64,000 nt of DNA from Candidatus Pacearchaeota archaeon (lineage in GTDB: Archaea; Nanobdellota; Nanobdellia; Pacearchaeales; GW2011-AR1): assembly GCA_038869895.1 (NCBI GenBank), contig JAWCQE010000001.1:121879-185878 (forward strand), in the 5' to 3' direction. Both the position numbers and the translations under genes were made by a program. The notes beneath the pieces are model-generated. The model did no database searches. It was not told the DNA's origin and saw nothing but the letters and a program-made list of their open reading frames with translations. Every line of letters starts with the position of its first letter. The first letter of the stretch is position 1. Positions 1 to 40,050 of this stretch are shown one piece after another.

Positions 1-330
1 CGAAGGGTTCTTTGGCAATTGAGTAATGGCATGAGAGCTGGAAGTGATATTAGTGTTGTTGTAAAAGAAGAGATAAAAAATCTTGGAGAGGAACAGGCAA
101 TACAGATACAAAGTTATGGAGGTAAATTAAATCCTTTGGTTATGTTTTTTATGATTATCGCAGTAATTCTTCCGACTCTGGGAACAACATTCTTAATAAT
201 AATTGCTTCAATTATTGGCATTTCCGGAAATATGGTGAAATTAATGTTTATATCAATATTCATTTTTATATTGTTTGTCCAAATAATGTTTCTTGGACTA
301 ATTAAATCTAGGAGGCCAAGCTTAATATGA
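1..330 (+). CDS. C-terminal part of a type II secretion system F-domain (TadC/FlaJ-like) membrane protein; 5'-truncated by the window edge or a separate upstream ORF
   Basis: The frame is open from the window start. The tail contains a T2SSF-domain-like hydrophobic helix pair. It overlaps the next T2SSF ORF by 4 nt (ATGA). Confidence 0.45.
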   Translation, partial: RRVLWQLSNGMRAGSDISVVVKEEIKNLGEEQAIQIQSYGGKLNPLVMFFMIIAVILPTLGTTFLIIIASIIGISGNMVKLMFISIFIFILFVQIMFLGLIKSRRPSLI

Positions 331-1289
331 ATACTTTGAGATTTTATCCGGAATCTGTAAGGATAATTTACGAGAAAAATATAAAAAATTCTGGAATTAA
401 AATTTCTCCTGAAAAATTCCACAATAGGGTAATTTTAATTTCATTTTTAGCTATGGTTATTGCATCAACAATATTTTATTTTTTTAACATTAATATGTTT
501 TATTCAGTCATTATTTTTATATTACTAAATATTTTTTTCTATTTTAACATAAGTTTAAGAGCAAGCACAAGAATAAGGAAGATGGAGGAAGTTTTTCCTG
601 ACGTAATTTCTTTAACTGCAAGCAATTTGAGATCTGGGATTACTATTGATAGAGCATTTTTACTTTCCTCAAGGCCGGAATTTTCTCCTTTAGATGAAGA
701 GATTCTTAAAACTGGAAAAGATATAGCAACAGGAAAAGACATTTCATATTCTCTAAAAAAAATGAGTGAAAGAATAAATTCAGAAAAAATATCAAAAGTG
801 GTTACATTAATAACTTCTGGATTAAAATCTGGAGGGAATATTGCAGATTTGCTTGAACAGACTTCAAGTAATATGAAAGAAAAAGAATTTATAGAAAAAA
901 GAGTTGCCTCAAATATTTTAATGTACGTCATATTCATATTTTTTGCCATTGGTATTGGGGCACCAGTATTATTTGCGCTTAGTTCTGTCCTCGTTGATGT
1001 AATGCTTAATATAACTTCCAAAATTCCCGAGATACCATCCTCTCAACTTCAATTGCCTTTAACATTTAAACAAATTCCAGTTTCGCCAAATTTTGTTATG
1101 TATTTTGGTATACTTTTTATGTTAGTTACTGATTTAATATCAAGTCTTGTGATAGGATTTGTAAATAAAGGAGATGGAAAATCAGGACTTAAGTATTTTA
1201 TTCCACTTGTAACTTTTTCTTTATTAGTTTACTTTTTTGTTAAAAAAATAATCTCGAAATTTGTTATAGATTCTATCTCGGGAATCTAG
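327..1289 (+). CDS. Type II secretion system F-domain polytopic membrane protein (TadC/FlaJ-like pilus assembly platform)
   Basis: 320-aa ORF. A soluble T2SSF-like helical domain (RASTRIRKMEEVFPDVISLTASNLRSGITIDRAF...) is flanked by N- and C-terminal TM segments. Confidence 0.6.
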   Translation: MNTLRFYPESVRIIYEKNIKNSGIKISPEKFHNRVILISFLAMVIASTIFYFFNINMFYSVIIFILLNIFFYFNISLRASTRIRKMEEVFPDVISLTASNLRSGITIDRAFLLSSRPEFSPLDEEILKTGKDIATGKDISYSLKKMSERINSEKISKVVTLITSGLKSGGNIADLLEQTSSNMKEKEFIEKRVASNILMYVIFIFFAIGIGAPVLFALSSVLVDVMLNITSKIPEIPSSQLQLPLTFKQIPVSPNFVMYFGILFMLVTDLISSLVIGFVNKGDGKSGLKYFIPLVTFSLLVYFFVKKIISKFVIDSISGI

Positions 1290-1341
1290 CTTTGTTTAAA
1301 AGGAGAGATATGTTTAAAAATGACTTTTATTTTAAATTAAT

Positions 1342-2127
1342 ATGAAATTAAGAAAAAAGAGAAGTAATTCTAAGGTAAAAATTGGTAAGAAATTAAATAA
1401 AAAAAAGCAAAGTGAAAAAAATAAAAAAATAGATGAAAAATTAAAGAGAGTGTCAAGTGGGATTAAAAAATTTGACAAAATGACTTCTGGAGGTTTTGAA
1501 GAGAATTCAACGAATCTTGTTATTGGAGGAGATGGAAGCGGGAAAACCATCTTTGCCATGAGTTTTTTAATAGAAGGGATAAAAAGAGGAGAAAATGTCC
1601 TATATATAAATTTTGAGGAATCAAAGGAAAATTTTTTTAGAAATATGTTAGGACTTGGATGGGATTTAAGCAAGTTTGAAAGTTCTGGGAGATTCACTTT
1701 TCTTGAATATTCTCCTGAAAAAATAAAAATGATGATTGATGAAGGTGGAGGGGTTGTTGAGGAGATAATATTAAAAAATAAAATAAAAAGACTCGTAATT
1801 GATAGCTTGACAAGTTTTTTGATTTTATTTCCTTCAAAGCAACTTAAAAGACAAGCTATTTCATCTTTGTTTAATCTTATAGAAAAATGGGATTGTACAA
1901 GCATTTTGACTTTGCAGGAATTTTCAGAAGAAATTAAGAACAAAAGAGATTCTGAAGCAGAAAGCCAGGCAGATAGTATAATTCTTCTCTATCTTATAAA
2001 GGTAAAAAATGAAAGAAAAAGATTTATTGAAGTCTTAAAGATGAGGGGAACAAGACATTCAACAGGAACTTATGAATTCAAAATTAAAAAAGGAATTGAA
2101 ATAGGAAATAAGAAAATAATAAAATAA
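1342..2127 (+). CDS. KaiC/RecA-superfamily ATPase (FlaH-like accessory ATPase of archaeal type IV pilus or archaellum systems)
   Basis: Walker A GGDGSGKT and a KaiC-like fold signature. It lies immediately downstream of the TadC/FlaJ-like gene. The N-terminus is Lys-rich, so the true start may be further downstream. Confidence 0.6.
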   Translation: MKLRKKRSNSKVKIGKKLNKKKQSEKNKKIDEKLKRVSSGIKKFDKMTSGGFEENSTNLVIGGDGSGKTIFAMSFLIEGIKRGENVLYINFEESKENFFRNMLGLGWDLSKFESSGRFTFLEYSPEKIKMMIDEGGGVVEEIILKNKIKRLVIDSLTSFLILFPSKQLKRQAISSLFNLIEKWDCTSILTLQEFSEEIKNKRDSEAESQADSIILLYLIKVKNERKRFIEVLKMRGTRHSTGTYEFKIKKGIEIGNKKIIK

Positions 2128-2137
2128 TTAAACGTAA

Positions 2138-2569
2138 TTAAACTGCATCAACTAGGTTTCCAGTCGATGTTAAATTAAGGGCACTTCCTTGCTTTTTGTA
2201 TGTTATCTTTATGTCTCCTTGGAATTTTTGTCCTGCAGTTAGCGTGCATGGAACAGTAAATGTTGTTAAATTTCCATTATTTATGTCTTGTGGAAGAGTT
2301 GGACTTACAGTTCCTGTACATCCTGCAACAGTTATATCTGTTATAGACAATTGTTCTCCAGCTCCATGTATTAATTCTAATTGTATACCAGACGTTTCGG
2401 CAACCCCATTACATGAAAAAGGGGGGCTAAGACTACATCTATTTGGTACATAAGTTTTTGGATTGAAAACTCCAAAAAATGCAAGAGCTGCAATGACTAT
2501 AACTGCTGCTAAAATAGCCCAGCCATACGTCATCAAAAATTCCATCGCGGCCTGTCCTCTTTTTTTCAT
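2138..2569 (-). CDS. Archaeal type IV pilin-like protein (class III signal peptide), with its own upstream AT-rich intergenic region
   Basis: N-terminus MKKRG|QAAMEFLMTYGWAILAAVIVIAALAFF is a canonical class III signal peptide with a hydrophobic helix. 143 aa. Confidence 0.7.
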   Translation of the reverse strand: MKKRGQAAMEFLMTYGWAILAAVIVIAALAFFGVFNPKTYVPNRCSLSPPFSCNGVAETSGIQLELIHGAGEQLSITDITVAGCTGTVSPTLPQDINNGNLTTFTVPCTLTAGQKFQGDIKITYKKQGSALNLTSTGNLVDAV

Positions 2570-2826
2570 AAGTAACCTCCTTTGTATTAAGATAATAAAA
2601 TTATGTTAAATTCGTTTATAAACATTTCTGTTAGTTGACTCTTTTATTATTAGTTAGTAGAAGATAATAAAGAGAGAAACCTTTGTCTTTTTTATAAAAG
2701 TTAATAGTGTAAAAACTGCTAATTTTTTGAATTTTACTTTTTCAAATCTTTATTAATACTTTTATTCTTTCAAATTAATCTTTGATAGATTTTTTTAATT
2801 GACAATATCCTTTTGAAATTATTGTT

Positions 2827-3744
2827 TTAAGAGGCTGTTGCGTTGTAAATTTCTAAATGTCCTGAATCGAGCTTAAACCATGATGGCATTCCTTGTATTT
2901 GATGTGGTTGTGGATTGAGTGATGAAAAGTATATATAGTCGACGATAGATTTTTGCTTTACTTGAATCCCTTGATTTTCTAATTTTGGTAAATATACAAG
3001 AGATTCAATCCCATATTGGTTTGGAGTAATTTTTCCTTCTATTCTGTCAAGAAAACTCGGAGATAAATTCGAGGAGATATAATATGAATTTTTAGTATGT
3101 TCAATAAGTACCGAGGTATTGTTGCTTGGAAAGGCATCGTATATTGTTTTATTTATTTTATTTGAAATCTTTCCATTAGTATTTATAAAATATATTGGAT
3201 CTTCAAATCCTTCAATTGGGATTGTTGCAGTTATATTTTGGATTTTATTCCATCTTGCAAGATTAGATTTATCCTCCATAATAAAATTTGAAATGAAGGT
3301 GATTTTGACATTCCAAGGGTCACTTTGGTATACATAAATTGAAGAATTTGACATGTTAATTATAACATTAATTTTTCCAGCCTTCTCATTTATTGAGTCA
3401 ATTAAATCTCTATATCTTGCCCCAAGTAAGATGTCATTCTCTTCACCATTAACCGTTCCATTAAAAAAAGATTCATTAAAAAAATAATTTATGTCATTGA
3501 TGTAATTGCCAGATTTTATTATCTCATCTTCAGCAATGAAAATTATTCTAAATCCAGAAATAAAAATCTGTCTTTCAAGATTTAATTCAATAGAATTAAG
3601 AAAATTTTCCATTGTTGAGATTCTTGTCGCAGTTGAGTACCTTTGTTGAGATATTGAAAATACTTCAAATGTAATAAAAATAAGTATAATTAAAAATATT
3701 GCTATTAAAGTCATTACTTGTGCTTTTTTATTTTTTATTTTCAT
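2827..3744 (-). CDS. Pilin-like protein with class III-type signal (KKAQ-V plus hydrophobic helix)
   Basis: N-terminus MKIKNKKAQVMTLIAIFLIILIFITF. It is the last gene of the minus-strand pilin-like operon, 2 nt from the upstream gene. Confidence 0.5.
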   Translation of the reverse strand: MKIKNKKAQVMTLIAIFLIILIFITFEVFSISQQRYSTATRISTMENFLNSIELNLERQIFISGFRIIFIAEDEIIKSGNYINDINYFFNESFFNGTVNGEENDILLGARYRDLIDSINEKAGKINVIINMSNSSIYVYQSDPWNVKITFISNFIMEDKSNLARWNKIQNITATIPIEGFEDPIYFINTNGKISNKINKTIYDAFPSNNTSVLIEHTKNSYYISSNLSPSFLDRIEGKITPNQYGIESLVYLPKLENQGIQVKQKSIVDYIYFSSLNPQPHQIQGMPSWFKLDSGHLEIYNATAS

Positions 3745-3745
3745 T

Positions 3746-6208
3746 TTATCTCCAAACTCTTACTTGTACTTCTGTATCCCATGTGAAAGGTATGCCTTGT
3801 ATTTCCGAAGTGGTTAATGAAATGTCATTCTCTGTAAATTTAGTTTCAATTTTATTGTTTGAATTTAAATCAAGGTTTGTTAGAAGTCTATAAATTGCGA
3901 GATTTATTGCATCATTATTATTATATGCTATTGAATGAGAAGTATAGGAGCATTCATTTTGGCCAGAGTAGTTTGACGGAACTAATATTGTTGAATTCTC
4001 TCCATTTTCAAATTCAATATTCCATGCACATCCTTCGGCACTTGCTACTATTGGGGAGAATGATAACATTTTTTTGACTACTCTGTAAATTATTTTATTG
4101 TGTTCAGAACCCCCTGTTGAATTGTTTGGATTTAGCGCTGTTGATATTCTTATTTTATTTTCTCCGCTTAATATTTTTTCTGAAGGAATATTGACTGCAA
4201 ATGGATCTCCTAAAAATATATATGGAAGATTAAATTTTGACAAGTCGAAAATTTCTTCCCAGATACTTAAATTATAATTGTAAATTTGGACTTTATCTGT
4301 CCATTTTGAGCCAGAATATGAGATTGCAATAATTTCATATGGAGTTACATCTTCTGGAATAAATAATTCTCCTTCTGAAATTGTATTCCCGAACTCTTCA
4401 GTTTCGGCACTTATTATTAATCCATAAGGTGTTGAATCGCTATAATTTAGTTTAATGTATGAATCTGGATAGAGTGTTGATTTTATATTTTCAGAAATAA
4501 TTGTCTGCTCAAAATAAAGTGAATTTAGGATATCTTCCGCTATTTCAGAATATACAGATATTAATTCTTCAATATTTGAATGATAATAATTACCATTCCC
4601 ACATGATGCCATTGATTGAAGTGTTGTTTCATCCGCATTATCTCCAAAACCAACTGTATGTATTGTAATATTATGGTTATTGTATGCTTCACAAGCTGCT
4701 CTTATTGCATCTGCTGTAGCGCTGTTACTTCCAGGATAACATGTTCCTTGCATATTTCCGTCAGTCATTACAATCATAAATTTTTTTCTTGATTGCATTG
4801 ACTGAGCGACGAAACTTCCTGTGGCATTTATTACCCCACAACATACACAATTTCCAGCTTTTGTAGTCCATGAATTTATTGTATTATTTAATGAAATTAT
4901 GTTATTTGAAAGAGGATGATAATTGTTTGGATTTACTCCGCTGTTGTATCCAACTAAACCAACTCTATTTAAATCTAATTCTAAAACTATCTCTATAAGT
5001 CTTCTATTGGCATTTCTTGCTAAATCTATCATTTTTATTCCAAGAGAAGGAATATTACTATTCATGCTTGAGGATAAATCAGTCACTGAAAAAATATCCG
5101 CCCCTATATTTTGAGTTATTTGATAAGAAACATTTTCAAGTCCGAGCCTCAAAGGGATTGTTTTTCTGCTTAATTTTGAATAATCAAACATTTGTGTTAA
5201 ATTTGAATTTGGTATGATAATCTCAAAATCCCTCCCTCCGCTATTTCCATTATAAATTGTTATATTTCCAATTGTCATAAAAATATTTTGTGAACTATTG
5301 TAATGCAGAAAAATTTCCATTGATGTAAGATTTCCTAAAATGTAAAAGCTATCATAAATATTAATTAGTCCATCTATTCCCGGTAAATTTTTTTTTGATT
5401 CAAGTGTAGTAAGTTCTTCTTCATTATAAATTATCTTAACAAATCCCCCTCCGATGAATAAATTTCCGTTTTTCCCAACAAAAGTTAATTTATTTTTTTC
5501 GTTGTTAACTTGTGATAGATTTCCGAGTATGACGAATTTGTAAATTTCATTTGATTGAATATCGTGTTCTCCTACAAACTGGTTATTTATATATAAATAA
5601 AAGTCTTCAGAGAATATAGCTTCAACATATATACTCTCTATTTTACCATCACTTTCGAGAGTTATATTGCCATCACCAACATAACCCCCAAAATAAATAT
5701 ATTTTACTTTACTTGAAGATGATAAAAAGGCTCTTGAAGAATATCCTTTAACAGATTCTCCTTGTTTTATCCCAGATATTATTTGACGAGATGTCCAAAC
5801 ATCTTCTGCTTCTGATATTTCTTTTGATGAATTTTCTGCAATTAAAACATTACTAAAATAAATGGCTATATTATCATTTAAATTTATTTCATTTAAAATC
5901 TCTTGAGTCATAAGTGTTGCTTCAGGTTTTGACAACGCATAAAATTCTCCAATTTGTTCGAGAACTGATTGATTCAAATCTTTTATTTTTCCTTCAGAGA
6001 TTAATTGATTCACATAATCATTATCAATTTTTCCTATTTCAAGAGATGAAAGAGAATTTAATAAATCTTGTTGGACATATTTTTGTGTTATTTTTTGGTT
6101 GGTAGGAGGAGTTACACTTAGAATCACGATAATTATAATTATTAGGGCTATAAGTGCATCTAAACTAAAATAATATCCTTTCTTCCCATTTATAAGGTTA
6201 AATTTCAT
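3746..6208 (-). CDS. Large pilin-like protein with a von Willebrand factor A (vWA) domain; putative pilus-associated adhesin
   Basis: N-terminal class III-like signal (NGKKGYYFSLDALIALIIIIIVIL). The MIDAS motif DLSSSM (DxSxS) is followed by ...MIVMTDGN... and ...HTVGFGDNAD..., typical of a vWA fold. 820 aa. It overlaps the neighbours on both sides (6205/6208 and 3744/3746). Confidence 0.65.
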   Translation of the reverse strand: MKFNLINGKKGYYFSLDALIALIIIIIVILSVTPPTNQKITQKYVQQDLLNSLSSLEIGKIDNDYVNQLISEGKIKDLNQSVLEQIGEFYALSKPEATLMTQEILNEINLNDNIAIYFSNVLIAENSSKEISEAEDVWTSRQIISGIKQGESVKGYSSRAFLSSSSKVKYIYFGGYVGDGNITLESDGKIESIYVEAIFSEDFYLYINNQFVGEHDIQSNEIYKFVILGNLSQVNNEKNKLTFVGKNGNLFIGGGFVKIIYNEEELTTLESKKNLPGIDGLINIYDSFYILGNLTSMEIFLHYNSSQNIFMTIGNITIYNGNSGGRDFEIIIPNSNLTQMFDYSKLSRKTIPLRLGLENVSYQITQNIGADIFSVTDLSSSMNSNIPSLGIKMIDLARNANRRLIEIVLELDLNRVGLVGYNSGVNPNNYHPLSNNIISLNNTINSWTTKAGNCVCCGVINATGSFVAQSMQSRKKFMIVMTDGNMQGTCYPGSNSATADAIRAACEAYNNHNITIHTVGFGDNADETTLQSMASCGNGNYYHSNIEELISVYSEIAEDILNSLYFEQTIISENIKSTLYPDSYIKLNYSDSTPYGLIISAETEEFGNTISEGELFIPEDVTPYEIIAISYSGSKWTDKVQIYNYNLSIWEEIFDLSKFNLPYIFLGDPFAVNIPSEKILSGENKIRISTALNPNNSTGGSEHNKIIYRVVKKMLSFSPIVASAEGCAWNIEFENGENSTILVPSNYSGQNECSYTSHSIAYNNNDAINLAIYRLLTNLDLNSNNKIETKFTENDISLTTSEIQGIPFTWDTEVQVRVWR

Positions 6209-6672
6209 TTCCAGACATAAAGATTAAATTTAATTAGTTTATTTTTATAGACGCTGATTCTTTCTATTTTTATTAAATTCTCAATTTTGGTTGAATTTAT
6301 TCTTCCAATATATTCTTTTTGAGTTCCATTGATTTCAAGATTGTCTATTGTAAAATAGAAATCGTCTTTGACTCCAAGACGTCTCTTTAGTAATTCATAA
6401 TTTGAATTGTAGAAGTTTTCTAATTTAGTTTGATTTATTATATTATCTGATAGAATTCCGCTTTCATCATTATTTAATATCAATTCTGAAGCAGTTCTTC
6501 CTTGATTAAGTAAGTCGTCAAGTTGATTCCCTGCTTGATTTGCATAGTTGATTGTAAATATAAAAAGCATGATTATGCCAGATGTAAATATAATCATTGC
6601 AATAATTATATCCAGACTCCATGCCTGTGCTTTCTTTTTATTTCCTTTATTGATTAAGATAAACTTCACCAT
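6205..6672 (-). CDS. Pilin-like protein (class III signal peptide)
   Basis: N-terminus ...NKGNKKKAQAWSLDIIIAMIIFTSGIIMLFIF. Overlaps the upstream and downstream genes. Confidence 0.55.
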   Translation of the reverse strand: MVKFILINKGNKKKAQAWSLDIIIAMIIFTSGIIMLFIFTINYANQAGNQLDDLLNQGRTASELILNNDESGILSDNIINQTKLENFYNSNYELLKRRLGVKDDFYFTIDNLEINGTQKEYIGRINSTKIENLIKIERISVYKNKLIKFNLYVWK

Positions 6673-7036
6673 TTTCTTTCTTTATAATATTTTCTCCTTT
6701 TAGTATCTCTCCGTTTACAGGAACAATATTATAAAGAACTCCAGTATCTTCAGTATACACATATATGCTGTTGTTTACAATTTTTACTTCATAGTTTTTT
6801 CCAATTATAGTTTGAGGGAGATTAAATTTTCGGGAATAACCATTTGATGATTTTGATGCAAGAGCTATTTCCTCTCTGACATTAAGAGCTATATTTTGGA
6901 CAATTATGTTTTCTTTTTCTTTGTTCTTTTCATTTATATTTCCAGATATCACTCCAAGGAATAAAACAAAGAAGAAAAGTATAGCTCCAAAAATAACAAT
7001 GAATTCTATAATCCCTTGTCCTCTTTTATTTTTCAT
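6647..7036 (-). CDS. Pilin-like protein (class III signal peptide); first gene of the minus-strand pilin operon
   Basis: N-terminus MKNKRG|QGIIEFIVIFGAILFFFVLFLGVI. Confidence 0.6.
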   Translation of the reverse strand: MKNKRGQGIIEFIVIFGAILFFFVLFLGVISGNINEKNKEKENIIVQNIALNVREEIALASKSSNGYSRKFNLPQTIIGKNYEVKIVNNSIYVYTEDTGVLYNIVPVNGEILKGENIIKKENGEVYLNQ

Positions 7037-7090
7037 TTAATATATTAAGATAACAGTTGATATGATTATATAAAAATTGCCTTAATAGAA

Positions 7091-8221
7091 TTACTTTAGT
7101 CCAAGATTAGCGAGAAGTTCTTCTTTTGAAAATTTTTCTAAATTTTTGTAATCTTGCCCTGTCCCTAGGAATAAGATTGGTTTTCCAGTTATATACCCTA
7201 TTGAGATTGCAGTTCCCCCTTTTTCATCTATGTCTGCTTTGGTTAAAATAGAACCATTAATTTCAAATAATTCATTGAATGATTTTGCCTGTTCAACAGC
7301 ATCATTACCTGTTATTGACTCAGCTATAAAAAGTTTTATATCAGGTTTGCAGACTCTTATTATCTTCTCCATCTCTTTCATTAGATTACTCTTAGTGTGC
7401 ATTCTTCCTGCAGTATCTATCATAACCACTTTTATCCCGTGTGATTTTGCATAAGAAATTGCGTCAAATGCAACTGCTGCTGGATCAGAACCATACTCAT
7501 GACTTATAACTTTAATCCCGAGGTTGTCACCATGCTTTTTTAGTTGTTCTATTGATGCTGCTCTGAAAGTATCTGAAGCTGCAAACACACACGAGATTTT
7601 GTGTTCATTGAGATAATATGCAAGTTTTGAAATAGTTGTTGTTTTGCCACTTCCGTTTATCCCAAAAAATAAAATAACAAAAGGGCCTTCTTTTTTCTCT
7701 CTTATTTTTTCAATAATATCAAATGGTTCTACAAGAATTCTTTTTATAGATTCTTTCAAAGAATTTTTGATTTCACTTTCAATTTCAGATTTTTTAATTT
7801 CAATATTCACAATATCCTTTTCCATATCTTCTTTTATTTTATCAACAACATTTAATGCTACATTATTCTCCAATAAAAGTGATTCCAATTCTTCAAAGAA
7901 TTCATCAAATATTTCCTTTGTTAAGCGCGATGTTGTAAATCTTCTTTTAATTCTTTCAAAAAATCCTTGTTCTTTTTCTAATTCAGGCTCTCCGATTTTT
8001 TCTTCAACTTGTTCTATTGAGTGTTCAAGTTTAATTGCGTTATCTTCTTTTAGTTTCTCTAAATCCTTTTTTTGTTTTTCAACACCTTCATATTTTTTTT
8101 CAGGTTCCTTTTCAATTTTTTCTTTTTTCTTGTCTTTTTCGTACTCTTCAGATTTTTCATCTTCTTTTTTTCCAAAGAATTTTGAAAGCTTTTCCTTTAA
8201 TGATTTGAACATTTTCTTCAA
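7091..8221 (-). CDS. ftsY: Signal recognition particle receptor FtsY
   Basis: SRP-GTPase NG domain with GINGSGKTTT (G1), DTAGR (G3) and TKADID (G4). It has an N-terminal acidic/Lys-rich domain and no M domain, so it is FtsY rather than SRP54. Confidence 0.9.
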   Translation of the reverse strand: MKKMFKSLKEKLSKFFGKKEDEKSEEYEKDKKKEKIEKEPEKKYEGVEKQKKDLEKLKEDNAIKLEHSIEQVEEKIGEPELEKEQGFFERIKRRFTTSRLTKEIFDEFFEELESLLLENNVALNVVDKIKEDMEKDIVNIEIKKSEIESEIKNSLKESIKRILVEPFDIIEKIREKKEGPFVILFFGINGSGKTTTISKLAYYLNEHKISCVFAASDTFRAASIEQLKKHGDNLGIKVISHEYGSDPAAVAFDAISYAKSHGIKVVMIDTAGRMHTKSNLMKEMEKIIRVCKPDIKLFIAESITGNDAVEQAKSFNELFEINGSILTKADIDEKGGTAISIGYITGKPILFLGTGQDYKNLEKFSKEELLANLGLK

Positions 8222-8336
8222 TATTGTATCTCCGAAAGATATATATATATTTCCATTGAATTAATATAAACGTTAGTACGAGTATAACCGGAAATATAAT
8301 CAGACAGAGTGATAATCCACAAGGAACTTATCAGAT

Positions 8337-8372
8337 TTATACTAAGTCTGAGGTTTATACTAAGTCTGAGGT
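8337..8372. repeat. 18-bp perfect tandem duplication TTATACTAAGTCTGAGGT x2
   Basis: Read directly from the sequence. Confidence 0.8.
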
Positions 8373-8466
8373 AGATACGATTGTTCGGAACACTAAAAAT
8401 AATCTGTCTGCTTTCAACGATAGAATAGATCAAAAGATAAATTCATTAGATTATTATATCAGAGAA

Positions 8467-8757
8467 ATGGATTCCAAAATATATTCATGTGGTGCAAATT
8501 CGCCACAAGACTTTAATTTCAGAAGTGGAGAGAGTGTTTTTACCTCAGATGGAAAAGAAATCTCTGTTATTACTAAATATAATAATGGGACCGTGGTTTT
8601 TAAAGTTTCGGCACAGGATATTAATGAGACAATAGTTTCCATGGAAAAAAAGGGAACTTCTGCTTTAATCGACGGTAGTAAAATACAGCTTCATTCAGTC
8701 CAAACAGTAACCTCTCCTTATCGAATTTCTTATTACGATAAGTCTTGTAACATATAA
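8467..8757 (+). CDS. Hypothetical small protein. The frame is open upstream to 8260 without an ATG, and the upstream part encodes a duplicated YTKSEV from an 18-bp tandem repeat
   Basis: The frame was translated manually. There is no in-frame ATG upstream of 8467. Confidence 0.25.
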   Translation: MDSKIYSCGANSPQDFNFRSGESVFTSDGKEISVITKYNNGTVVFKVSAQDINETIVSMEKKGTSALIDGSKIQLHSVQTVTSPYRISYYDKSCNI

Positions 8758-8875
8758 TTTCCCTTTGACTAATCTATTTATTTTTTTCTTCTTTTTCTTT
8801 TTTAAATAAACCTTCCAGTTCTATTTAAATTGCAAACAAATTTAAACCCTAGAACACTTTATTTTAAAAGAGGGA

Positions 8876-9307
8876 ATGAATGATATGGCTCCAAATAATC
8901 CAGTTGATATCTCATATGATTTTGCACTAAAACTTAGAGATTTAGAAGAATCGCAGAAATTATCAAAAGAAAGACTTTTGCTTATAGGACAGAATCTAAT
9001 TGAAGCACAAGAGAAAAATATATCTGACATAACAGAGATTAAGAAGGCTATACAGAGTTTAAATGATGAATTAAAGAGAATAAAAAGTATTGTTTCAAAT
9101 TTGAGCGAGGAGATTTCAAAATCAGCGAGAAAAGAAGAACTTTCTATGGTTATAAAGCAGTGGAAAATGTTTGAACCTTTAGAGTTTGTTAGAATAAAAG
9201 ATTTGGATAGAGAAATAGATAAAAGATTAAAACACCATGGTAAGGAAACTTCGAAAGAAGAAACAAAAGAAAATGAAAAATATAAGTTTTGGTCAGGAAA
9301 ATTATAA
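8876..9307 (+). CDS. Hypothetical coiled-coil protein
   Basis: 143-aa ORF with heptad-like charged and hydrophobic periodicity. No recognisable motif. Confidence 0.4.
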   Translation: MNDMAPNNPVDISYDFALKLRDLEESQKLSKERLLLIGQNLIEAQEKNISDITEIKKAIQSLNDELKRIKSIVSNLSEEISKSARKEELSMVIKQWKMFEPLEFVRIKDLDREIDKRLKHHGKETSKEETKENEKYKFWSGKL

Positions 9308-12972: not shown

Positions 12973-13155
12973 AATATTAATAATAAAGAGATATTAGATT
13001 TTGTAAAAAGTAAAAAGATAGTTACAAGTTCAGAAGTTGCGAAAAAATTTAATATTTCATGGAATACTGCAGATAAATATCTTCTTGAACTCGCATTTAA
13101 TGATAAAATCGAAAGAATTAAAAAAGAAGGGGTGAATTTATGGATTTTAAAATAA
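12958..13155 (+). CDS. Small winged-helix/HTH DNA-binding protein (putative transcriptional regulator)
   Basis: 65 aa: ...SSEVAKKFNISWNTADKYLLELAFNDKIERIKKEGVNLWILK is an HTH pattern. The start lies inside a 12-mer tandem repeat, and the alternative ATG at 12970 is in frame. Confidence 0.45.
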   Translation: MLNNMNINNKEILDFVKSKKIVTSSEVAKKFNISWNTADKYLLELAFNDKIERIKKEGVNLWILK

Positions 13156-13970
13156 AAAGTCAGATAAGTAAAAAATCAGCTTGCAAGAAAGGACAGGTGA
13201 CAATTTTTGTTATTATCTCTCTTCTTCTTGTTGTTGCAATAATCCTATTATTTATCCTTTACAAAAATCAGCAGATTCCTGGAGTAAGAGTCGAAAAAAC
13301 TTCTGGCGAGGAACTCGAGTCTTGTATTAAATCTTATCTTGAAGAAGCAGTCGATTTAATTTTTGAAAATTCTGGGTATATTGAACTGCCGGAATTAACT
13401 TATCAAATAAGAAATATTTATGGATATTACAAACAAGAAAATGAAAAGAAAATCCCTTATTTGTGTTATACTGCAATTAATTATGTAAGATGCATTCCGC
13501 AAGAGCCTTTTTTTGTAAACCATATAGAAGATGAAATAAAAAATTTCATAATTCCAAAAGTTGAGATATGTTTTGAGAATTTAAGGAATAGATTGCAAGA
13601 AAGAAATTATGAAACAATGTTTGGTATAACAAAAAATTTAGATGTTGAATTAAATGAAAGAGGAGTCCAAATTTATATTGAAAAAGAAATTTCGCAAACA
13701 AAAGCAGAGAAAGAAGAACGTTTTAGCGAATTTAAGTCTAATTATAAGACAAGATTGTATGATGTAGCAAAAATATCTGAAAAAATTATCACAGAGGAGG
13801 TTAAATTTTGCAATTCTGATTATGTTGAAGTGATGAGAAATAATAAATTAATTGAAATAACAAAATTTCAGACAGGAGATGATGTTAAAGTTTATTCTGT
13901 TAAGGATTTACCTTCAAAGAAAGAATTTAAATTTGCTGTAAGGAACTGTGTCCTTGCAACTCCATCTTAA
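13140..13970 (+). CDS. Class III signal peptide (pilin-like) protein, cassette copy 1 partner; paralog of 17934..18734
   Basis: N-terminus ...KKSACKKG|QVTIFVIISLLLVVAIILLFIL. The C-terminus FKFAVRNCVLATPS matches FNFAVRSLALPIGYGL in the paralog. Confidence 0.6.
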   Translation: MDFKIKSQISKKSACKKGQVTIFVIISLLLVVAIILLFILYKNQQIPGVRVEKTSGEELESCIKSYLEEAVDLIFENSGYIELPELTYQIRNIYGYYKQENEKKIPYLCYTAINYVRCIPQEPFFVNHIEDEIKNFIIPKVEICFENLRNRLQERNYETMFGITKNLDVELNERGVQIYIEKEISQTKAEKEERFSEFKSNYKTRLYDVAKISEKIITEEVKFCNSDYVEVMRNNKLIEITKFQTGDDVKVYSVKDLPSKKEFKFAVRNCVLATPS

Positions 13971-13971
13971 A

Positions 13972-16900
13972 ATGAATAAAAAGTTTATCGCAGGAATTGA
14001 AATTTTTCTTGTCATAAGCATGGCTGTTTCATTTTCATGGATTCTAGGAAATATTTATGGGACTTCTCCAGATATAAAAAGTTTATTAGAATTTATAACA
14101 ATAATTCCAAGTGTTTCTGCCCAAACAACTACATCATGTTGTCTTAATTTGAAAAGCGGAGCCAGTTGTACTGACATTCCATCTGATTCATGTTCTGATA
14201 TTTGTGATGGAAATTGTGTTTCAGGGACAACATGTTCTCAACTAAGGGAATGCAATCTTGGATGTGGATTTAATTCTGATGAAGGAACATGCACTCCAAA
14301 TACTCCAAGGGTACTATGTGAAGGAGATGAGGGCTGTGAATTTCTTGATGACCCTTTTTGCAACAATCAAAAATGTGAAATTGGATGTTGTGTTCTTGGA
14401 TTGAGTGCGAATTTGGAGACGAGAACTGGATGTGAAATACAATCTTTAAGAAGAGGAGTATCATTTGAATTTGACAGTTCAATAAAAGATGGCGTTCAAT
14501 GTTTGAATAAGGGTAAAACAAGTGAGGGAGCTTGTGTTGTAAATTTTGGAGAAGAAAAAAATAACTGCATTTTTACAACACAAAGTGAGTGTGTCAACAA
14601 TATAAAAGGAGTTTTTTATGAAGGCTATCTTTGTTCTCATCCAGAACTTAAAACAATATGTGTGAAGCAGTCAAGAGTAAGTTGTTTTGACAATAGGGAT
14701 GAGGTATATTGGTATGATTCATGTGGGAATAGAGAAAATATTTATTCATCAAATAGGGCAAGTTCATGGAATAATGGATTCGTCTTATCGAAAGAGAAAT
14801 CATGCAATCCTAATTCTTCAAATGAAAATTCAGGAAGCTGTGGAAATTGTAATTATAATCTTGGAAGTATATGCGGAGAGTTTAGGCCTGGAGTTGATTC
14901 TGGAAATATGGAAGGTTATACTTGTAGAAATTTAAACTGCATTGATTCAAAAGGAAAACAAAGAACAAACGGAGAATCATGGTGTGTTTATGATGGAACT
15001 ATAGGCGGAGGAAGTATACTTGAAGGGAAGAGTGGGGGATTATTATCAAAAATAGCTGGAGGATTATTGGAGGGAGAGGTTGCATTATTAAGCACTGATT
15101 TAGTAGGGAGCAGACATTTTAGGCAGGTATGTGTTAATGGAAAAGTAGAGGTAGAACCATGCGCTGATTATAGGAAGGAGATATGTGTCCAGAATGATAA
15201 ATCCCTTGATAATGGAAGAAAGATTGATAATGCAATATGTAGGATGAATTTATGGGAACAATGTATTTCATACAATCAAGGAAATGAGGGATGTGGGCCA
15301 GGATGTTTAACCAAATGTGTGAAAAATCCAGATTGTAGGATTCATCCTGTTTTTGTTGACTCTCGTTTTAAATTTAATGCTTGTGTCCCAAAATATCCTC
15401 CTGGATTTGATTTAGGAAGTACAAGCGGAGTAGATAGTTTTGTAAGAAATTATGTATCAAGTTCTATTAGTGATTTGGATGGAGGTGGGGTTCTTTCAAA
15501 ATTATCAGGAAGTTTAAGTTCTGAGAATTCTGCAGGAAGCATTTGTTCTTTAGCATCGCAAAAATGCACTAGTATATGGACTAAGACATGCGGACTATCA
15601 GGAATTCATTGGGAATGCACGAAAAACTGCAAATGCCATACTGAATCTTTTACAATTCAGATGAATAATCTTTGTGTTTCTCTTGGAGATTGTGGAGTTT
15701 ATGCAAATTATGAAGGAAAGGTTACTCCTGGTGGAGCTTATGTAACAAAGAAAGGAGGACATGGAAGGACCCCTCTACAACCATTTATTTTGATTCCAGT
15801 TTATGCTGTTTTAGTTAAAATATTAAAACCAACTCCTCCAAGTGGTGGATTTTTTCGAGATGAGAAAGACATAGTGAATTTTCCAACTGAAATTATTGAT
15901 CCATTCTTAGGAGGGTATAATAGAATAGATGTAGGGAAACTGCCAAGTCAGTTGGATAATATGCTTGGAAGCCAGTTAGGAACAACTATCGGAGCAGGAG
16001 TTGCTGGAGGACTTGTAGGAGGGGTAGTTGCAGGACTAGGAGGAGTTACAGCTGCAGGTCTTGGAGTTATTGGGGCTGCTACACAAGGAATATTATGGGC
16101 ACCAATTATTTTTCCAACAGGGGGGGTGGGTATGTTACAAATACCAGTTACTTTTTATGCTCCCACTAACAATATCCTTTCAACTGTATTTCACGGACAT
16201 TATTTAGGTAAACCATTTTTCGGATTTGATCCTTTATCAATTGCAATTGGAATCGCAGTTGGAATCGCGATTACTTATCTTATTGGATGTGGAAAAGTTA
16301 AGACAGTTGATATCAAATTTCAGTGTTTACCTTGGCAAAGGCCAAAAGGCGGGACTGATTGTGAGAAATGTGATGATGACCCTTTGAAACCATGTTCAAG
16401 GTATAGGTGTGAATCTCTTGGAGCAAGATGCACTTTGATAAATGAAGGAAAAGGAGATGTATGCGTAAGTGTTTCTGGGGAAAGTTCTATACCAGTAATT
16501 AGTCCATGGGAAGAGATACTCAATACCTCTTTTTATAGGTATGAAGACATAAGTCCTAATGGATTTAAAATAAGAACAAAAGATGGACAGTGTATACAGG
16601 CATTTACTTATTTAGTTTTTGGAGTTGAAACAGATGTTTATTCGGAGTGTTTCTGGAGTTTAGAACCATTTGCATATGAAAATAAATCAGAGGCAAATTT
16701 ATTTTTAGAAGGAAATCTTTTAACTAAAAATCATACAATGCTAACTTTATTGCCAAGTGTTGAAAGTTTATTGGCTAATGAAATTAATAACCAAGAAGAA
16801 TTGGGACAGGCATTGGAAACAACAACAGAACAGGACATCAGCGCCAGGCAATACATATTAAATCGATTAGGAGATTTAAATATCTATGTAAAATGCGCAA

Positions 16901-17898
16901 ACCTTGATGGAAAAGCCAACGACCAGGATTATAAAATAAACTTCTGTGTGTCTCCTGGGCCAGATATACAAGAACCGGTAATAATTGCGTCTTCTCCTCC
17001 GCAGAACAACTTCACAAAATTTGATGCAACAGAACAAGAAGCTTTCTTTTTTATTTCAGAACCAGCTGAATGTAGATGGGATAGTACGAGGCAAGTTATA
17101 TCAAATGAATTAGAATCATATAATTCATTGAGAAATGAAATGGAATGTAGTGTTGATTTAGATGAAAGTACAATACTTGGATGGCCGTGCAATGCAACTC
17201 TTCCAATAACAGGCGAGGAAAATAGATTTTTTATTCAATGTCGAGACCAGCCGTGGCTTGGAAATAATAACTCAAGAAACATAGGAGACATTTTTGAATA
17301 TTCGTTAAAAAGAAGTAATTCTGAATTAAAAATAACTTCTATTAAACCTAATGAAAAAGTCTTTGCAGGAAGTGAACCTATTATGATTGAATTGGAAGTT
17401 GAGACATCAGGAGGAGTTGAAAATGGAAACGCTTTCTGCAAATATAGTTTTGACAATAATCAATTTGTAAATTTCAGAATTACAGGCGAGAAAGTTCATA
17501 GCCAAATTCTAAATCAGATGAGAAAAGGAGATTATAAAGTTTATATTCAGTGTAATGATTTTGCAGGAAATGTTGCAGAAGGCATTGGGGAGTTCTCATT
17601 AGAACTTGATACTAAAGCCCCTGTTATAACAAGAGTTTTTAGTAATGCTAACACTTTATTCATTACAACAGATGAAGAGGCAAAGTGTTTTTATAAGAAT
17701 GAATCTGATGTAGGATGTAATTTTCCGTTAAATAATGTTACTGAATTTAATATTACTGAATTTACAAAGAATGGAAATATTCACTCAACTCCTTTAATAA
17801 AAGGAAAGAGTTACTATATAAAATGCGAAGATATTTGGAGCAATAGAGCTGAGAGTTGTTCTATTGTTGTAAGGAGTTTTGAAAATTTTGCAAGTTAA
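13972..17898 (+). CDS. Giant cysteine-rich secreted or surface protein (cassette copy 1, fused form, ~1308 aa)
   Basis: N-terminal hydrophobic signal ending SVSA|QTTTSCC. More than 90 Cys in repeated CxxC and CxC patterns. A central Gly-zipper TM-like segment (GAGVAGGLVGGVVAGLGGVTAAGLGVIG). The C-terminal half is homologous to ORF 20608..22692 and the N-terminal half to ORF 18751..20607. The ORF track begins at 13948, but the ATG at 13972 directly follows the upstream stop. Confidence 0.7.
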   Translation: MNKKFIAGIEIFLVISMAVSFSWILGNIYGTSPDIKSLLEFITIIPSVSAQTTTSCCLNLKSGASCTDIPSDSCSDICDGNCVSGTTCSQLRECNLGCGFNSDEGTCTPNTPRVLCEGDEGCEFLDDPFCNNQKCEIGCCVLGLSANLETRTGCEIQSLRRGVSFEFDSSIKDGVQCLNKGKTSEGACVVNFGEEKNNCIFTTQSECVNNIKGVFYEGYLCSHPELKTICVKQSRVSCFDNRDEVYWYDSCGNRENIYSSNRASSWNNGFVLSKEKSCNPNSSNENSGSCGNCNYNLGSICGEFRPGVDSGNMEGYTCRNLNCIDSKGKQRTNGESWCVYDGTIGGGSILEGKSGGLLSKIAGGLLEGEVALLSTDLVGSRHFRQVCVNGKVEVEPCADYRKEICVQNDKSLDNGRKIDNAICRMNLWEQCISYNQGNEGCGPGCLTKCVKNPDCRIHPVFVDSRFKFNACVPKYPPGFDLGSTSGVDSFVRNYVSSSISDLDGGGVLSKLSGSLSSENSAGSICSLASQKCTSIWTKTCGLSGIHWECTKNCKCHTESFTIQMNNLCVSLGDCGVYANYEGKVTPGGAYVTKKGGHGRTPLQPFILIPVYAVLVKILKPTPPSGGFFRDEKDIVNFPTEIIDPFLGGYNRIDVGKLPSQLDNMLGSQLGTTIGAGVAGGLVGGVVAGLGGVTAAGLGVIGAATQGILWAPIIFPTGGVGMLQIPVTFYAPTNNILSTVFHGHYLGKPFFGFDPLSIAIGIAVGIAITYLIGCGKVKTVDIKFQCLPWQRPKGGTDCEKCDDDPLKPCSRYRCESLGARCTLINEGKGDVCVSVSGESSIPVISPWEEILNTSFYRYEDISPNGFKIRTKDGQCIQAFTYLVFGVETDVYSECFWSLEPFAYENKSEANLFLEGNLLTKNHTMLTLLPSVESLLANEINNQEELGQALETTTEQDISARQYILNRLGDLNIYVKCANLDGKANDQDYKINFCVSPGPDIQEPVIIASSPPQNNFTKFDATEQEAFFFISEPAECRWDSTRQVISNELESYNSLRNEMECSVDLDESTILGWPCNATLPITGEENRFFIQCRDQPWLGNNNSRNIGDIFEYSLKRSNSELKITSIKPNEKVFAGSEPIMIELEVETSGGVENGNAFCKYSFDNNQFVNFRITGEKVHSQILNQMRKGDYKVYIQCNDFAGNVAEGIGEFSLELDTKAPVITRVFSNANTLFITTDEEAKCFYKNESDVGCNFPLNNVTEFNITEFTKNGNIHSTPLIKGKSYYIKCEDIWSNRAESCSIVVRSFENFAS

Positions 17899-17933
17899 AT
17901 TTATAAAGAAATTTGTTTTTAGAAGGTAATAGA

Positions 17934-18734
17934 ATGATTAAATCAAAAAACAAAAGAGGACAGACAACAATCTTTGTTATCTTAGCAGTAGTTATTGTTG
18001 CAGTCATAGTGATTTTTTTTGCAGTTACGGATATAGGGAGAGAAACTTTTGAAAAAATCTCTAATATTGTTGGCAGTGATGAGATTAATGTTAAAGAAGA
18101 ATTGAATAAATGTTTTATTGATAACAGCGAAATCAATAAAAAAATAAATCTAATTATGTCACAGGGAGGAAGTATTGAACCTTCTTTATTTTTTCTTCAT
18201 AATGGAACGAAATTAAGTTATTTATGTTATACTAATGAATTTTATAAGACATGTGTAAATCAGCAGCCTTTAATATTACAACATACAAAGAATGAGATAA
18301 ATAGGGCAATTCTTCCAGAAATAGATAAATGTATTTCTTCATTAAAAGCCAATTTTGAAAAAAGAGGATATCAAATAAGAGGACAGAATTTCGAGAGTTC
18401 AATAGATATAATTCACAACAACATAATTATTAAAATAAATTTCCCTCTAACTATCAAAAAGGGGGATTTAACACAGACATTTGAAAATTTTGAAATAAAA
18501 AAACATAGCCAGTATTATCAATTATTAAGTGTTGCAACATCAATTGTAAATTTTGAATCCCAATATGGCGATAGTGATCCAGTTTTATATATGTCTCTTT
18601 ATCCGAATACAAGAGTTGAAAAATTAAAACAAGGAGATGGGACAACAATTTATAAGATTAGTGATAGGGAAACAATGGAAACTTTTAACTTTGCTGTAAG
18701 AAGTTTGGCTTTGCCTATAGGATATGGATTATAA
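17934..18734 (+). CDS. Class III signal peptide (pilin-like) protein, cassette copy 2 partner
   Basis: N-terminus MIKSKNKRG|QTTIFVILAVVIVAVIVIFF. Paralog of 13140..13970 with a shared C-terminal FxFAVR motif. Confidence 0.6.
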   Translation: MIKSKNKRGQTTIFVILAVVIVAVIVIFFAVTDIGRETFEKISNIVGSDEINVKEELNKCFIDNSEINKKINLIMSQGGSIEPSLFFLHNGTKLSYLCYTNEFYKTCVNQQPLILQHTKNEINRAILPEIDKCISSLKANFEKRGYQIRGQNFESSIDIIHNNIIIKINFPLTIKKGDLTQTFENFEIKKHSQYYQLLSVATSIVNFESQYGDSDPVLYMSLYPNTRVEKLKQGDGTTIYKISDRETMETFNFAVRSLALPIGYGL

Positions 18735-18750
18735 ATTCAAATAGTTAAAA

Positions 18751-37149: not shown

Positions 37150-40050
<2,901 letters not shown>

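Follow-up and report, generated by a model that had tools for sequence, protein, structure and literature searches.

The first 7,036 nucleotides of the 64-kb stretch analysed here (the window) belong to a genuine type IV pilus locus of an archaeon, one with two platform genes. They make up the downstream two-thirds of a gene cluster (~12 genes, ~10.4 kb) whose very probable product is an adhesive type IV pilus, or type IV filament, of a tiny and probably host-dependent member of the Pacearchaeota (DPANN), assembled along the lines of the mechanism proposed below. Of two half-size T2SSF genes, this span carries the 3' end of the first and the whole of the second; a KaiC-family ATPase gene and a solo pilin gene follow, and then an operon of four genes for class-III-signal proteins, one of them an 820-aa vWA/MIDAS protein. 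The locus is a well-preserved example of a known machine and does not reveal a new kind of machine; the filament itself is a product predicted from the genes. The window is archaeal by its 23S rRNA, and the MAG of a ‘Candidatus Pacearchaeota archaeon’ encodes proteins 100% identical to the KaiC-like, vWA and pilin proteins of the window. The cluster is kept in 80 species-representative genomes; in a GTDB scan for relatives the best match was 66% identical. The central reading of the original prediction (a type IV pilus-like locus in which a platform and a KaiC-family ATPase accompany a solo pilin and a minor-pilin operon that includes a vWA adhesin) was upheld gene for gene, with correct coordinates and matching domains; the likeness of the ATPase to FlaH holds as an analogy.

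The membrane platform is encoded by two genes, designated Fa and Fb. Fa, which is TadB-like, enters the window as its 3' end (1..330, + strand; 109 codons; T2SSF E 5e-4 on the fragment) and is complete on the public contig L085, which is 100% identical to window positions 1-1420 across the 1420-bp overlap and extends the locus 9.7 kb upstream. There Fa encodes 292 aa with PF00482, and the window fragment is identical to its residues 184-292. The TadC-like Fb (327..1289, + strand; 320 aa; PF00482 E 6e-16) begins in a 4-nt overlap with the stop of Fa. In the ArlJ and UpsF models the L001 orthologue of Fa aligns with the N-terminal half, and Fb matches positions 269-553 of the 555-position ArlJ model, i.e., the C-terminal half. 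The two genes are paralogous: L085 Fa matches the L001 orthologue of Fb at E 1e-10 and the window Fb at E 2e-9 (20% identity). The TadC/FlaJ-like platform that had been predicted is therefore present as T2SSF membrane proteins, but as two separate half-size genes instead of one FlaJ.

A FlaI/PilB-type secretion ATPase had been expected upstream of the window. Extension onto L085, which carries a T2SSE ATPase gene, Fa, a pilin gene and a wHTH gene, located a FlaI/GspE-type T2SSE ATPase gene immediately upstream, in the same place as in 56 of 61 related genomes. The ATPase, whose gene is split by an in-frame TAA in this organism, is 76% identical to its L001 orthologue, which is closest to archaeal GspE 2OAP (E 2e-69), FlaI (E 7e-58) and CpaF (E 1e-47) and scores 300 bits against the NCBIfam FlaI model and 147 bits against the bindosome BasE model (cutoff 1000). 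Also upstream of the window on L085 are a gene for a membrane-anchored wHTH protein, directly upstream of the ATPase gene, and a gene for a sixth class-III-signal pilin (135 aa). In the family of this pilin 10 of 40 members match PF04021 (the second family with such a match being that of the 129-aa protein described below), and one of 40 has a weak TadE match.

The KaiC-like gene (1342..2127, + strand; 261 aa; PF06745 E 6e-54) is the last of the ATPase-platform operon, directly after Fb, and encodes a single-domain ATPase with a Lys-rich N-terminal tail of ~35 residues; Walker A residues G65/K68, the pair E92-E93 and D154 do not vary among 30 orthologues. Of the solved structures, KaiC, PH0186 and PH0284 come closest. 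NCBIfam scores were 150 bits for KaiC and 123 bits for KaiC_arch_3, as against 57.6 bits for ArlH (cutoff 215) and 60.7 bits for FlaH (cutoff 194); scores so far under the cutoffs rule out an ArlH/FlaH orthologue. A RadA/RadB recombinase was likewise rejected (23-29 bits versus 150 for KaiC), as was a circadian KaiC oscillator, since the protein is a single domain aligning to CI and the oscillator has a duplicated CI+CII of ~500 aa with KaiA/KaiB partners; no kaiB-like neighbour of the gene was found in the annotated loci. Of 61 species-representative genomes from Pace-, Woese- and Nanoarchaeota, 56 keep the order T2SSE-Fa-Fb-KaiC, and in three more the gene is adjacent and inverted. In the reciprocal test, on metagenome loci found from the platform gene Fb, the KaiC-like gene stood beside Fb in 42 of 46. 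Linkage was absent at L032 and L067 in the first test, and at L145, L146 and L165 in the reciprocal one. With linkage in both directions, the concern that the ATPase might be a KaiC paralogue unrelated to pili does not hold. Thus, of the predicted KaiC/FlaH-like ATPase in J-then-H order, the KaiC family and the link to pili stand. Because the protein is not an ArlH orthologue and the order is I-J-J-KaiC rather than the H-I-J of the archaellum, its likeness to FlaH is one of functional analogy alone.

The candidate major pilin (2138..2569, − strand; 143 aa) carries the class III signal MKKRG/QAAMEFLMTYGWAIL (beginning MKKRG/QAAMEF, the slash marking the predicted cleavage site), and its N-terminus is nearly invariant in ~40 species. 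Its family comprises 4192 protein clusters, some members of which are named UPF0333 by JGI; Pfam and NCBIfam gave no family for this protein or for the 155- and 305-aa operon products. The AlphaFold model (pLDDT 91) places a helix at residues 3-31 and then a beta-sandwich head at residues 44-142. In Foldseek the model matched Ig-like domains and archaeal pilins only weakly (E about 4e-3), over the full length in the case of archaeal T4P and Aap pilins, and pointed to no specific pilin family; it supports an archaeal pilin architecture of helix plus beta-sandwich. Upstream of the gene, an AT-rich spacer of 257 nt (2570..2826, − strand), read from the sequence, contains a TATA-like TTTATAAA box ~50 nt before the ATG and a GGAGGT Shine-Dalgarno, and is a putative promoter. 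Both the motif and the separate AT-rich intergenic region predicted for this canonical class III pilin were therefore recovered.

On the same strand, four genes form an operon in the order 6647-7036, 6205-6672, 3746-6208 and 2827-3744, joined by a 26-nt overlap, a 4-nt overlap and a 1-nt gap. It is preceded by a 54-nt spacer that reaches to the FtsY stop codon (7037..7090, − strand; read from the sequence) and holds a TTTTTATATAA box ~35 nt before the ATG, which may act as its promoter. The first gene (6647..7036, − strand; 129 aa) has the N-terminus KRG/QGIIEFIVIFG and a DUF7266 match (E 7e-6); among 39 orthologues DUF7266 was found in 17 and Class_IIIsignal PF04021 in 12, with Q7 and E11 invariant. 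The second (6205..6672, − strand; 155 aa) has the N-terminus KKA/QAWSLDIIIAMIIF by motif scan, and Q16, W18 and D21 are nearly invariant in 40 orthologues. The fourth (2827..3744, − strand; 305 aa; no Pfam match) has the N-terminus KKA/QVMTLIAIFLIIL by motif scan; its family of 36 orthologues conserves a KKG-(I/M/V)FFT N-terminus and always lies beside the vWA gene.

The third gene (3746..6208, − strand; VWA E 4e-11) encodes the 820-aa protein, a modular pilin-like adhesin. Its class-III-like N-terminal helix leads into a helical domain and a beta-sandwich; the vWA/MIDAS domain (~370-565) comes next, and a conserved beta domain follows at the C-terminus. The DLSSSM motif occupies residues 377-382. 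In 78 sequences of the family the MIDAS residues D377, S379, S381 and D483 are invariant, and T453 is present in 75; the window protein has Asn there, a change of the MIDAS Thr that may affect its metal binding. The protein had no match at E <= 1 when the PDB was searched by sequence, leaving the fold search alone informative. The AlphaFold model (pLDDT 86.8) and Foldseek confirmed the vWA/MIDAS fold with its DxSxS...T...D motif (Thr to Asn), the matches including ITIH1, BatB, the S. sanguinis PilB minor pilin and the tip adhesins PitA, SpaC and Mfa5, which supports a resemblance of the modelled vWA domain to those of pilus tip adhesins. In some orthologues LamG is added to, or stands in place of, the central module, a swap that fits an exchangeable binding module. 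The four-gene class-III-signal operon with its DLSSSM-bearing vWA member is thus as predicted in genes, overlaps and VWA domain.

A FlaFind-style scan of the 94 ATG-started ORFs of at least 60 aa in the whole window gave ten matches in nine ORFs, six of them on the five pilus-locus proteins (the 820-aa one at two offsets), so all five class III signals originally predicted carry the motif. The N-terminal motifs are kept in 36-51 orthologues per family, and this conservation puts the matches far beyond chance. At 13140-18734, 6 kb from the pilus locus, further class-III-signal proteins form a second cluster, in which giant Cys-rich proteins accompany them. The prepilin peptidase, on the other hand, does not lie just upstream, where the original prediction had thought it probable: no class III signal peptidase (PibD/FlaK/EppA, Peptidase_A24) was detected in the 64-kb window, the 9.7-kb extension or ~160 related-locus flanks. 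A motif search for GxGDxK, or for GxGD with at least 4-5 transmembrane segments, turned up only a presenilin/SPP homologue, which is encoded at 54905-55873 and is the one GxGD protease of the window. With no Peptidase_A24 found in the sequence searched, the cleavage of the pilins is a prediction from their signals.

Among the closest known systems are the archaeal two-platform-gene type IV pili, which include Clade 1/‘System 1’ Epd (Methanococcus maripaludis), the euryarchaeal Clade 2 and subsystem 4A of some DPANN (Makarova, Koonin & Albers 2016; Sivabalasarma & Albers 2026); the ATPase is placed in no Makarova clade (1, 2 or 4A). Two-platform-gene TFF systems have been catalogued in DPANN, and two platform genes beside one ATPase, as found here, are a criterion for Epd ‘System 1’ (bioRxiv 10.64898/2026.04.22.720090). 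KaiC-family ATPases and paired tadC genes recur in archaeal type IV pilus loci (PMC4858521), and KaiC-family ATPases have been reported near Clade 2 and 4B loci. Shared features are: i) a FlaI/GspE-type ATPase gene followed by two tadC-like genes; ii) a stand-alone major pilin gene; iii) several class-III-signal minor pilins with a large adhesin-like protein. Moreover, EppA substrates have Gln at +1, as do the pilins here. On the other hand, the Epd major pilin has no globular domain whereas the 143-aa pilin has a beta-sandwich head, Epd-type clusters contain a dedicated EppA/EpdA peptidase whereas none lies in or near this one, the KaiC-like gene is a near-constant operon member here, and the adhesin carries vWA (or LamG) in place of DUF2341/PilY-like domains.

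The cluster also recalls the ArlH-ArlI-ArlJ set of the archaellum, in that genes for a FlaI-type ATPase and a FlaJ-type platform are joined by one for a RecA/KaiC-superfamily ATPase, and by this analogy the KaiC-like protein could plausibly form a ring modulating the motor ATPase. An archaellum is nevertheless ruled out: ArlH and archaellins are absent, the platform is split into two genes, and no archaellin or ArlF/G family matched the five class-III-signal proteins of the window in Pfam and NCBIfam at E <= 0.1. With bacterial Tad/Flp it shares a split platform (TadB, TadC), a CpaF/TadA-related ATPase and minor pilins (TadE/F) encoded beside a large vWA protein (TadG), but it is an archaeal system with archaeal class III signals and without secretin, TadZ or the short Flp-type pilin; no Flp pilin, TadZ or RcpA secretin was detected in the window or L085. 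Streptococcus sanguinis PilB is a modular type IV minor pilin onto which a vWA module is grafted (PDB 7B7P/7BA2; PMC8179133). The 820-aa protein resembles it (Foldseek E 1e-9) in combining a pilin-type N-terminus with a MIDAS-bearing vWA domain, presumably for direct adhesion from the pilus. Yet it is twice as long, has extra helical, beta-sandwich and C-terminal beta domains and is only 14% identical; the two are likely of independent origin.

In the mechanism we propose, the six class-III-signal proteins (the 143-aa major pilin, the four operon products and the 135-aa pilin encoded upstream of the window) would enter the membrane and, as their observed signals suggest, be cut after [KR]-[GA], leaving Gln at +1. 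A hexameric FlaI/GspE-type ATPase acting on the Fa+Fb platform would then lift pilins from the membrane into the filament, a step for which the genes are observed and the mechanism is drawn from the established biology of the family. By analogy with GspH-K, PilVWX-PilY1, TadE/F/G and the vWA pilin PilB of S. sanguinis, the four co-translated operon proteins may constitute a priming or tip complex that shows the vWA/MIDAS domain for metal-dependent binding to surfaces or host cells. The co-transcribed KaiC-family ATPase would most likely sit as a ring on the ATPase-platform complex, gating or timing assembly via nucleotide binding or autophosphorylation and so playing for this motor the part of ArlH for ArlI without being its orthologue, a role suggested by gene linkage alone. 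The membrane-anchored wHTH protein might couple expression to the envelope state.

A short pseudopilus or bindosome-like scaffold, showing the vWA/LamG protein and perhaps the class-III proteins of 13140-18734 on the cell surface with no long pilus, would also be compatible with six class-III-signal proteins that include one abundant pilin and with the second such cluster and its giant Cys-rich partners nearby; the ATPase matches the BasE model too, and TFF machines are reported to serve widely in a bindosome-type role (bioRxiv 10.64898/2026.04.22.720090). However, the BasE score is well under its cutoff and lower than the FlaI score, no substrate-binding protein or ABC transporter gene is linked to the cluster, and the near-invariant helix, strong Shine-Dalgarno and promoter-like region of the 143-aa pilin fit a polymerising major subunit; we consider such a scaffold improbable. 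Only slightly less so is a decaying remnant, non-functional in this organism through a split ATPase and the MIDAS Thr-to-Asn change at N453. The ATPase gene on L085 is split by an in-frame TAA at 7727-7729 into pieces of ~110 aa and 459 aa, whereas 60 of 64 relatives have one uninterrupted ORF (515-751 aa); the TAA may impair the system in this organism, or it may be a single-base error of the MAG assembly. Against decay, all 11 other genes are intact, with conserved motifs and overlapping starts; the 459-aa piece has an ATG start 15 nt past the stop and keeps the whole FlaI/GspE-aligning region, and one other genome, L045, also has a two-piece ATPase. An adhesive pilus remains the preferred reading.

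The KaiC-like protein might instead be a general signalling or regulatory ATPase (transcriptional, post-translational or DNA-related) housed in the pilus operon and not a motor part, to which we give serious credence without expecting it to be right. It is nearer to KaiC and KaiC_arch_3 than to ArlH, keeps both catalytic glutamates like active KaiC domains, has a Lys-rich tail that could bind nucleic acid and lacks the linkage at the five loci named above, and Makarova et al. treat KaiC-family proteins at type IV pilus loci as regulators (PMC4858521). Yet linkage exceeds 90% in both directions across lineages 47-66% identical, with a fixed place after Fb; linkage this tight typically marks a subunit or dedicated partner. 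This question touches the KaiC step of the model alone and leaves the pilus assignment unaffected. Returning to the KaiC-like protein as a motor partner, a stronger form of the proposal, which we advance tentatively and regard as rather doubtful, is that Pace- and Woesearchaeal type IV pili independently took on a KaiC-type ring ATPase, which became an obligatory third part of the motor, convergent with ArlH. If so, a pilus without a retraction ATPase may gain a nucleotide- or phosphorylation-timed switch (of extension, retraction or rotation) in host attachment, and host specificity would be determined by the exchangeable vWA/LamG tip module.

Pacearchaeota, like other DPANN archaea, have tiny genomes and presumably live attached to other cells. 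Type IV pili are a candidate attachment organelle also in the episymbiotic Saccharibacteria. Because few multi-gene systems are kept so intact across Pace-, Woese- and Nanoarchaeota, the cluster is a strong candidate for such an organelle, and for experimental work it supplies a list of parts, namely the major pilin, a putative tip set of four proteins whose vWA/LamG module can be swapped, the split platform, a KaiC-type partner present in nearly all cases and a putative membrane-bound regulator.

The forward strand of the pilus locus (window 1-7036) opens with the 3' end of Fa (1-330, the last 109 residues), one of two half-size T2SSF platform genes, followed by the second, Fb (327-1289; 320 aa; PF00482, E 6e-16), and by a 261-aa KaiC-family ATPase (1342-2127; PF06745, E 6e-54), here called the KaiC-like protein. 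On the reverse strand lie the solo gene of a 143-aa pilin (2138-2569; start MKKRG|QAAMEFLMTYGWAIL) and a four-gene operon encoding, in order, p129 (129 aa; 6647-7036), p155 (155 aa; 6205-6672; 26-nt overlap with the preceding gene), an 820-aa vWA protein (3746-6208; 4-nt overlap; vWA domain, E 4e-11) and p305 (305 aa; 2827-3744; 1-nt gap), which is a single translationally coupled unit. The ftsY gene (7091-8221, -) adjoins the locus, and the 54-nt spacer between it and the operon holds a TATA-like box; a separate AT-rich stretch of 257 nt precedes the 143-aa pilin gene and contains a TTTATAAA box as well as a GGAGGT ribosome-binding site. Every gene listed in the original prediction was found where it had been placed. 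A FlaFind-style scan of the whole window yielded 10 class III signal matches in nine of the 94 ATG-started ORFs of at least 60 aa; six of the 10 fell on the five class-III-signal proteins of the locus, all of which were matched.

The window has a G+C content of ~28%; its 23S rRNA gene is archaeal, as are housekeeping genes for FttA, a proteasome subunit, Mre11/Rad50, FtsZ and a tRNA intron endonuclease. Moreover, proteins 100% identical to its KaiC-like, vWA and pilin products occur on a 221-kb contig of a "Candidatus Pacearchaeota archaeon" MAG; thus the source organism is a DPANN archaeon. The 23S gene is complete (37181-40015, -); since neither a 16S nor a 5S rRNA gene was detected in any part of the 64-kb window, the rRNA genes appear unlinked.

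The assembly ATPase had been predicted to lie just upstream of the window. Via an exact-protein look-up with Fb, we located contig JAWCSC010000008.1 (assembly GCA_038868955.1; locus L085), whose last 1420 bp were 100% identical to window 1-1420, extending the window upstream by 9.7 kb. Toward the window, L085 encodes a 135-aa class-III-signal protein (start MRKGG|QAGIEYLIIIGF, on the strand opposite to the ATPase), a 212-aa membrane-anchored winged-helix (TM-wHTH) protein (6820-7458), a T2SSE secretion ATPase (7367-9124), the complete 292-aa Fa, and Fb: the ATPase gene indeed stands there, directly before the two platform genes. Its product was 76% identical to the orthologue of the related locus L001, which was closest to Archaeoglobus GspE (2OAP, E 2e-69), followed by FlaI (E 7e-58) and CpaF (E 1e-47). 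An in-frame TAA (L085 7727-7729) splits the L085 gene into pieces of ~110 and 459 aa, for which a nonsense mutation, a genuine gene fission or an error in MAG assembly could account; the gene is a single ORF (515-751 aa) in 60 of 64 relatives, one other genome (L045) also has it split, and, according to a preprint describing TFF systems with two platform genes (bioRxiv 10.64898/2026.04.22.720090), there is no known case of ATPase fission. Of 34 loci having 9 kb on both sides, 33 contained the TM-wHTH gene, which lies directly upstream of T2SSE; its L001 orthologue (5917-6294) weakly matched Lrs14-type regulators (E 6e-5). As for the platform, the L001 Fa orthologue matched the N-terminal half of the ArlJ model and of the UpsF model, Fb aligned to positions 269-553 of the 555 in ArlJ, and Fa and Fb were paralogous (E 1e-10 to 2e-9, 20-25% identity). 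Thus the platform is a FlaJ divided between two genes, an arrangement shared with Epd (EpdJ/K) and Tad (TadB/C); two tadC genes occur in many euryarchaeal systems (Makarova et al., PMC4858521).

We then used an alignment of KaiC-like orthologues to scan GTDB, at one genome per species, and mapped the window proteins and their L001 counterparts onto the best 80 loci of 571 confirmed relatives; these 80 were all from MAGs labelled Pace-, Woese- or Nanoarchaeota, or plain "archaeon". A recurrent cluster emerged: i) on one strand, p129 and a second small pilin; ii) on the other, TM-wHTH, T2SSE, Fa, Fb and KaiC-like; iii) next, p155, vWA and p305, in some loci a 200-aa membrane-anchored protein, and lastly the 143-aa pilin. 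The minor-pilin block lies on either side of the cluster depending on lineage, and in the window it is inverted, downstream of the KaiC-like gene. Where a locus extended 4.5 kb or more beyond the KaiC-like gene on its upstream side (61 loci), T2SSE-Fa-Fb directly preceded this gene on the same strand in 56 cases and was adjacent but inverted in three more. In the reciprocal test, metagenome contigs were searched with an Fb alignment, and the KaiC-like gene directly followed Fb in 42 of the 46 loci that reached far enough downstream (at 4.2 kb in one more). Thus the KaiC-like gene is a near-constant member of the operon, and this two-way linkage answers the alternative, raised with the original prediction, that the ATPase is a KaiC paralogue unrelated to pili.

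The KaiC-like protein has a single RecA-type domain, preceded by a Lys-rich tail of ~35 residues that is Lys-rich in the orthologues too. Its closest solved structures were KaiC (both halves), PH0186, PH0284 and SSO2452, with RadA/RecA matching far more weakly. Orthology to ArlH/FlaH was rejected, since its NCBIfam scores fell below the cutoffs (ArlH 57.6 bits vs 215; FlaH 60.7 vs 194); KaiC and KaiC_arch_3 scored 150 and 123 bits respectively. As Walker A G65 and K68, the paired glutamates E92-E93 and D154 were invariant in 30 orthologues, catalysis is probably retained. Archaeal T4P operons often encode KaiC-family ATPases (Makarova et al., PMC4858521).

N-termini were strongly conserved within each class-III-signal family. 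In the 143-aa family, which is very large (4192 protein clusters, some members labelled UPF0333 by JGI), the N-terminus reads K-G-Q-AAMEFLMTYGWAILAA, with 15 consecutive positions invariant in 72 sequences. Q7 and E11 were invariant in the p129 family (DUF7266 matching 17/39 and Class_IIIsignal 12/39), Q, W and D nearly so in the p155 family, and the p305 family shared the motif KKG-(I/M/V)FFT; Class_IIIsignal matched 10 of 40 members of the upstream 135-aa family. The AlphaFold model of the 143-aa pilin (pLDDT 91) consisted of a beta-sandwich head (residues 44-142) preceded by a long helix at the N-terminus (3-31), and its Foldseek matches were all weak, including full-length Pyrobaculum T4P and Sulfolobus Aap pilins (E ~4e-3). 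We take this pilin to be the major subunit on account of its solo gene, strong ribosome-binding site, own promoter-like region and invariant assembly helix.

The vWA protein carries DLSSSM at residues 377-382. Among 78 orthologues, D377, S379, S381 and D483 were invariant and T453 was found in 75, with Asn taking its place in the window protein (N453). Its AlphaFold model (pLDDT 86.8) runs from a hydrophobic helix through a small helical domain, a large beta-sandwich (~113-357) and the vWA domain (~370-565) to a C-terminal beta domain, whose residues showed stronger conservation than the vWA module. Foldseek matches were due to the vWA domain and included ITIH1, BatB, the pilus tip adhesins PitA, SpaC and Mfa5, and the modular vWA pilin PilB of S. 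sanguinis (E 1e-9). Some orthologues of 1000-1130 aa have LamG domains, with or without vWA, which suggests an exchangeable binding module.

Other surface and secretion genes lie nearby. A second class-III-signal cluster (13140-22692, +) encodes two paralogues of 276 aa (KKG|QVTIFVI) and 273 aa (KRG|QTTIFVI), with very large Cys-rich proteins, secreted or membrane-bound, encoded after each: one of 1316 aa, the other a 618-aa and 694-aa pair resembling the halves of a 1316-aa paralogue. Pfam matched none of the proteins of this cluster; the pilus machinery described above may handle them as substrates too. Cell-surface genes encode a CBM96-domain protein (22849-23541, -) and an 884-aa S-layer-like protein (PF05124; 28461-31115, +). 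Within L085 1-2604, ~5 kb upstream of the pilus cluster, are a second, larger T2SSE gene (746 aa, truncated where the locus ends) and a secreted 759-aa fn3/LamG protein; another type IV filament system may be present in this organism. SRP GTPase genes bracket the pilus cluster, SRP54/Ffh upstream (L085 3055-4431, -) and FtsY downstream. SRP targets pilins to the membrane, and the bracketing may be coincidence. A Peptidase_A24 prepilin peptidase was not found in the 64-kb window, L085 or the flanks of related loci; the window encodes a single intramembrane protease of the GxGD type, a presenilin/signal-peptide-peptidase homologue (54905-55873, -; PF06550, E 2e-14; nine predicted TM; GGGD at residue 254).

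Beyond the gene set, linkage, signal motifs and folds shown here, a working order can be proposed. Following established type IV filament biology, a class III peptidase would process the prepilins, and the T2SSE ATPase would polymerise the major pilin on the Fa/Fb platform. By analogy with GspH-K, PilVWX-PilY1, TadE/F/G and S. sanguinis PilA/B/C, the four co-translated operon proteins may prime the filament, occupy its tip and display the vWA module. A KaiC-like ring, judging from linkage only, might modulate the motor as ArlH acts on ArlI in the archaellum.

Type IV pilus islands (PMC6393860) and TFF systems with two platform genes (bioRxiv 10.64898/2026.04.22.720090) have already been described in DPANN genomes, the latter preprint making no mention of KaiC or vWA. 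With the KaiC-T4P association published as well, the locus is a well-resolved further case of a known kind of system. Slightly beyond the searched literature go its near-obligatory KaiC-like gene, its vWA/LamG modular pilin-like adhesin and its membrane-bound wHTH gene.
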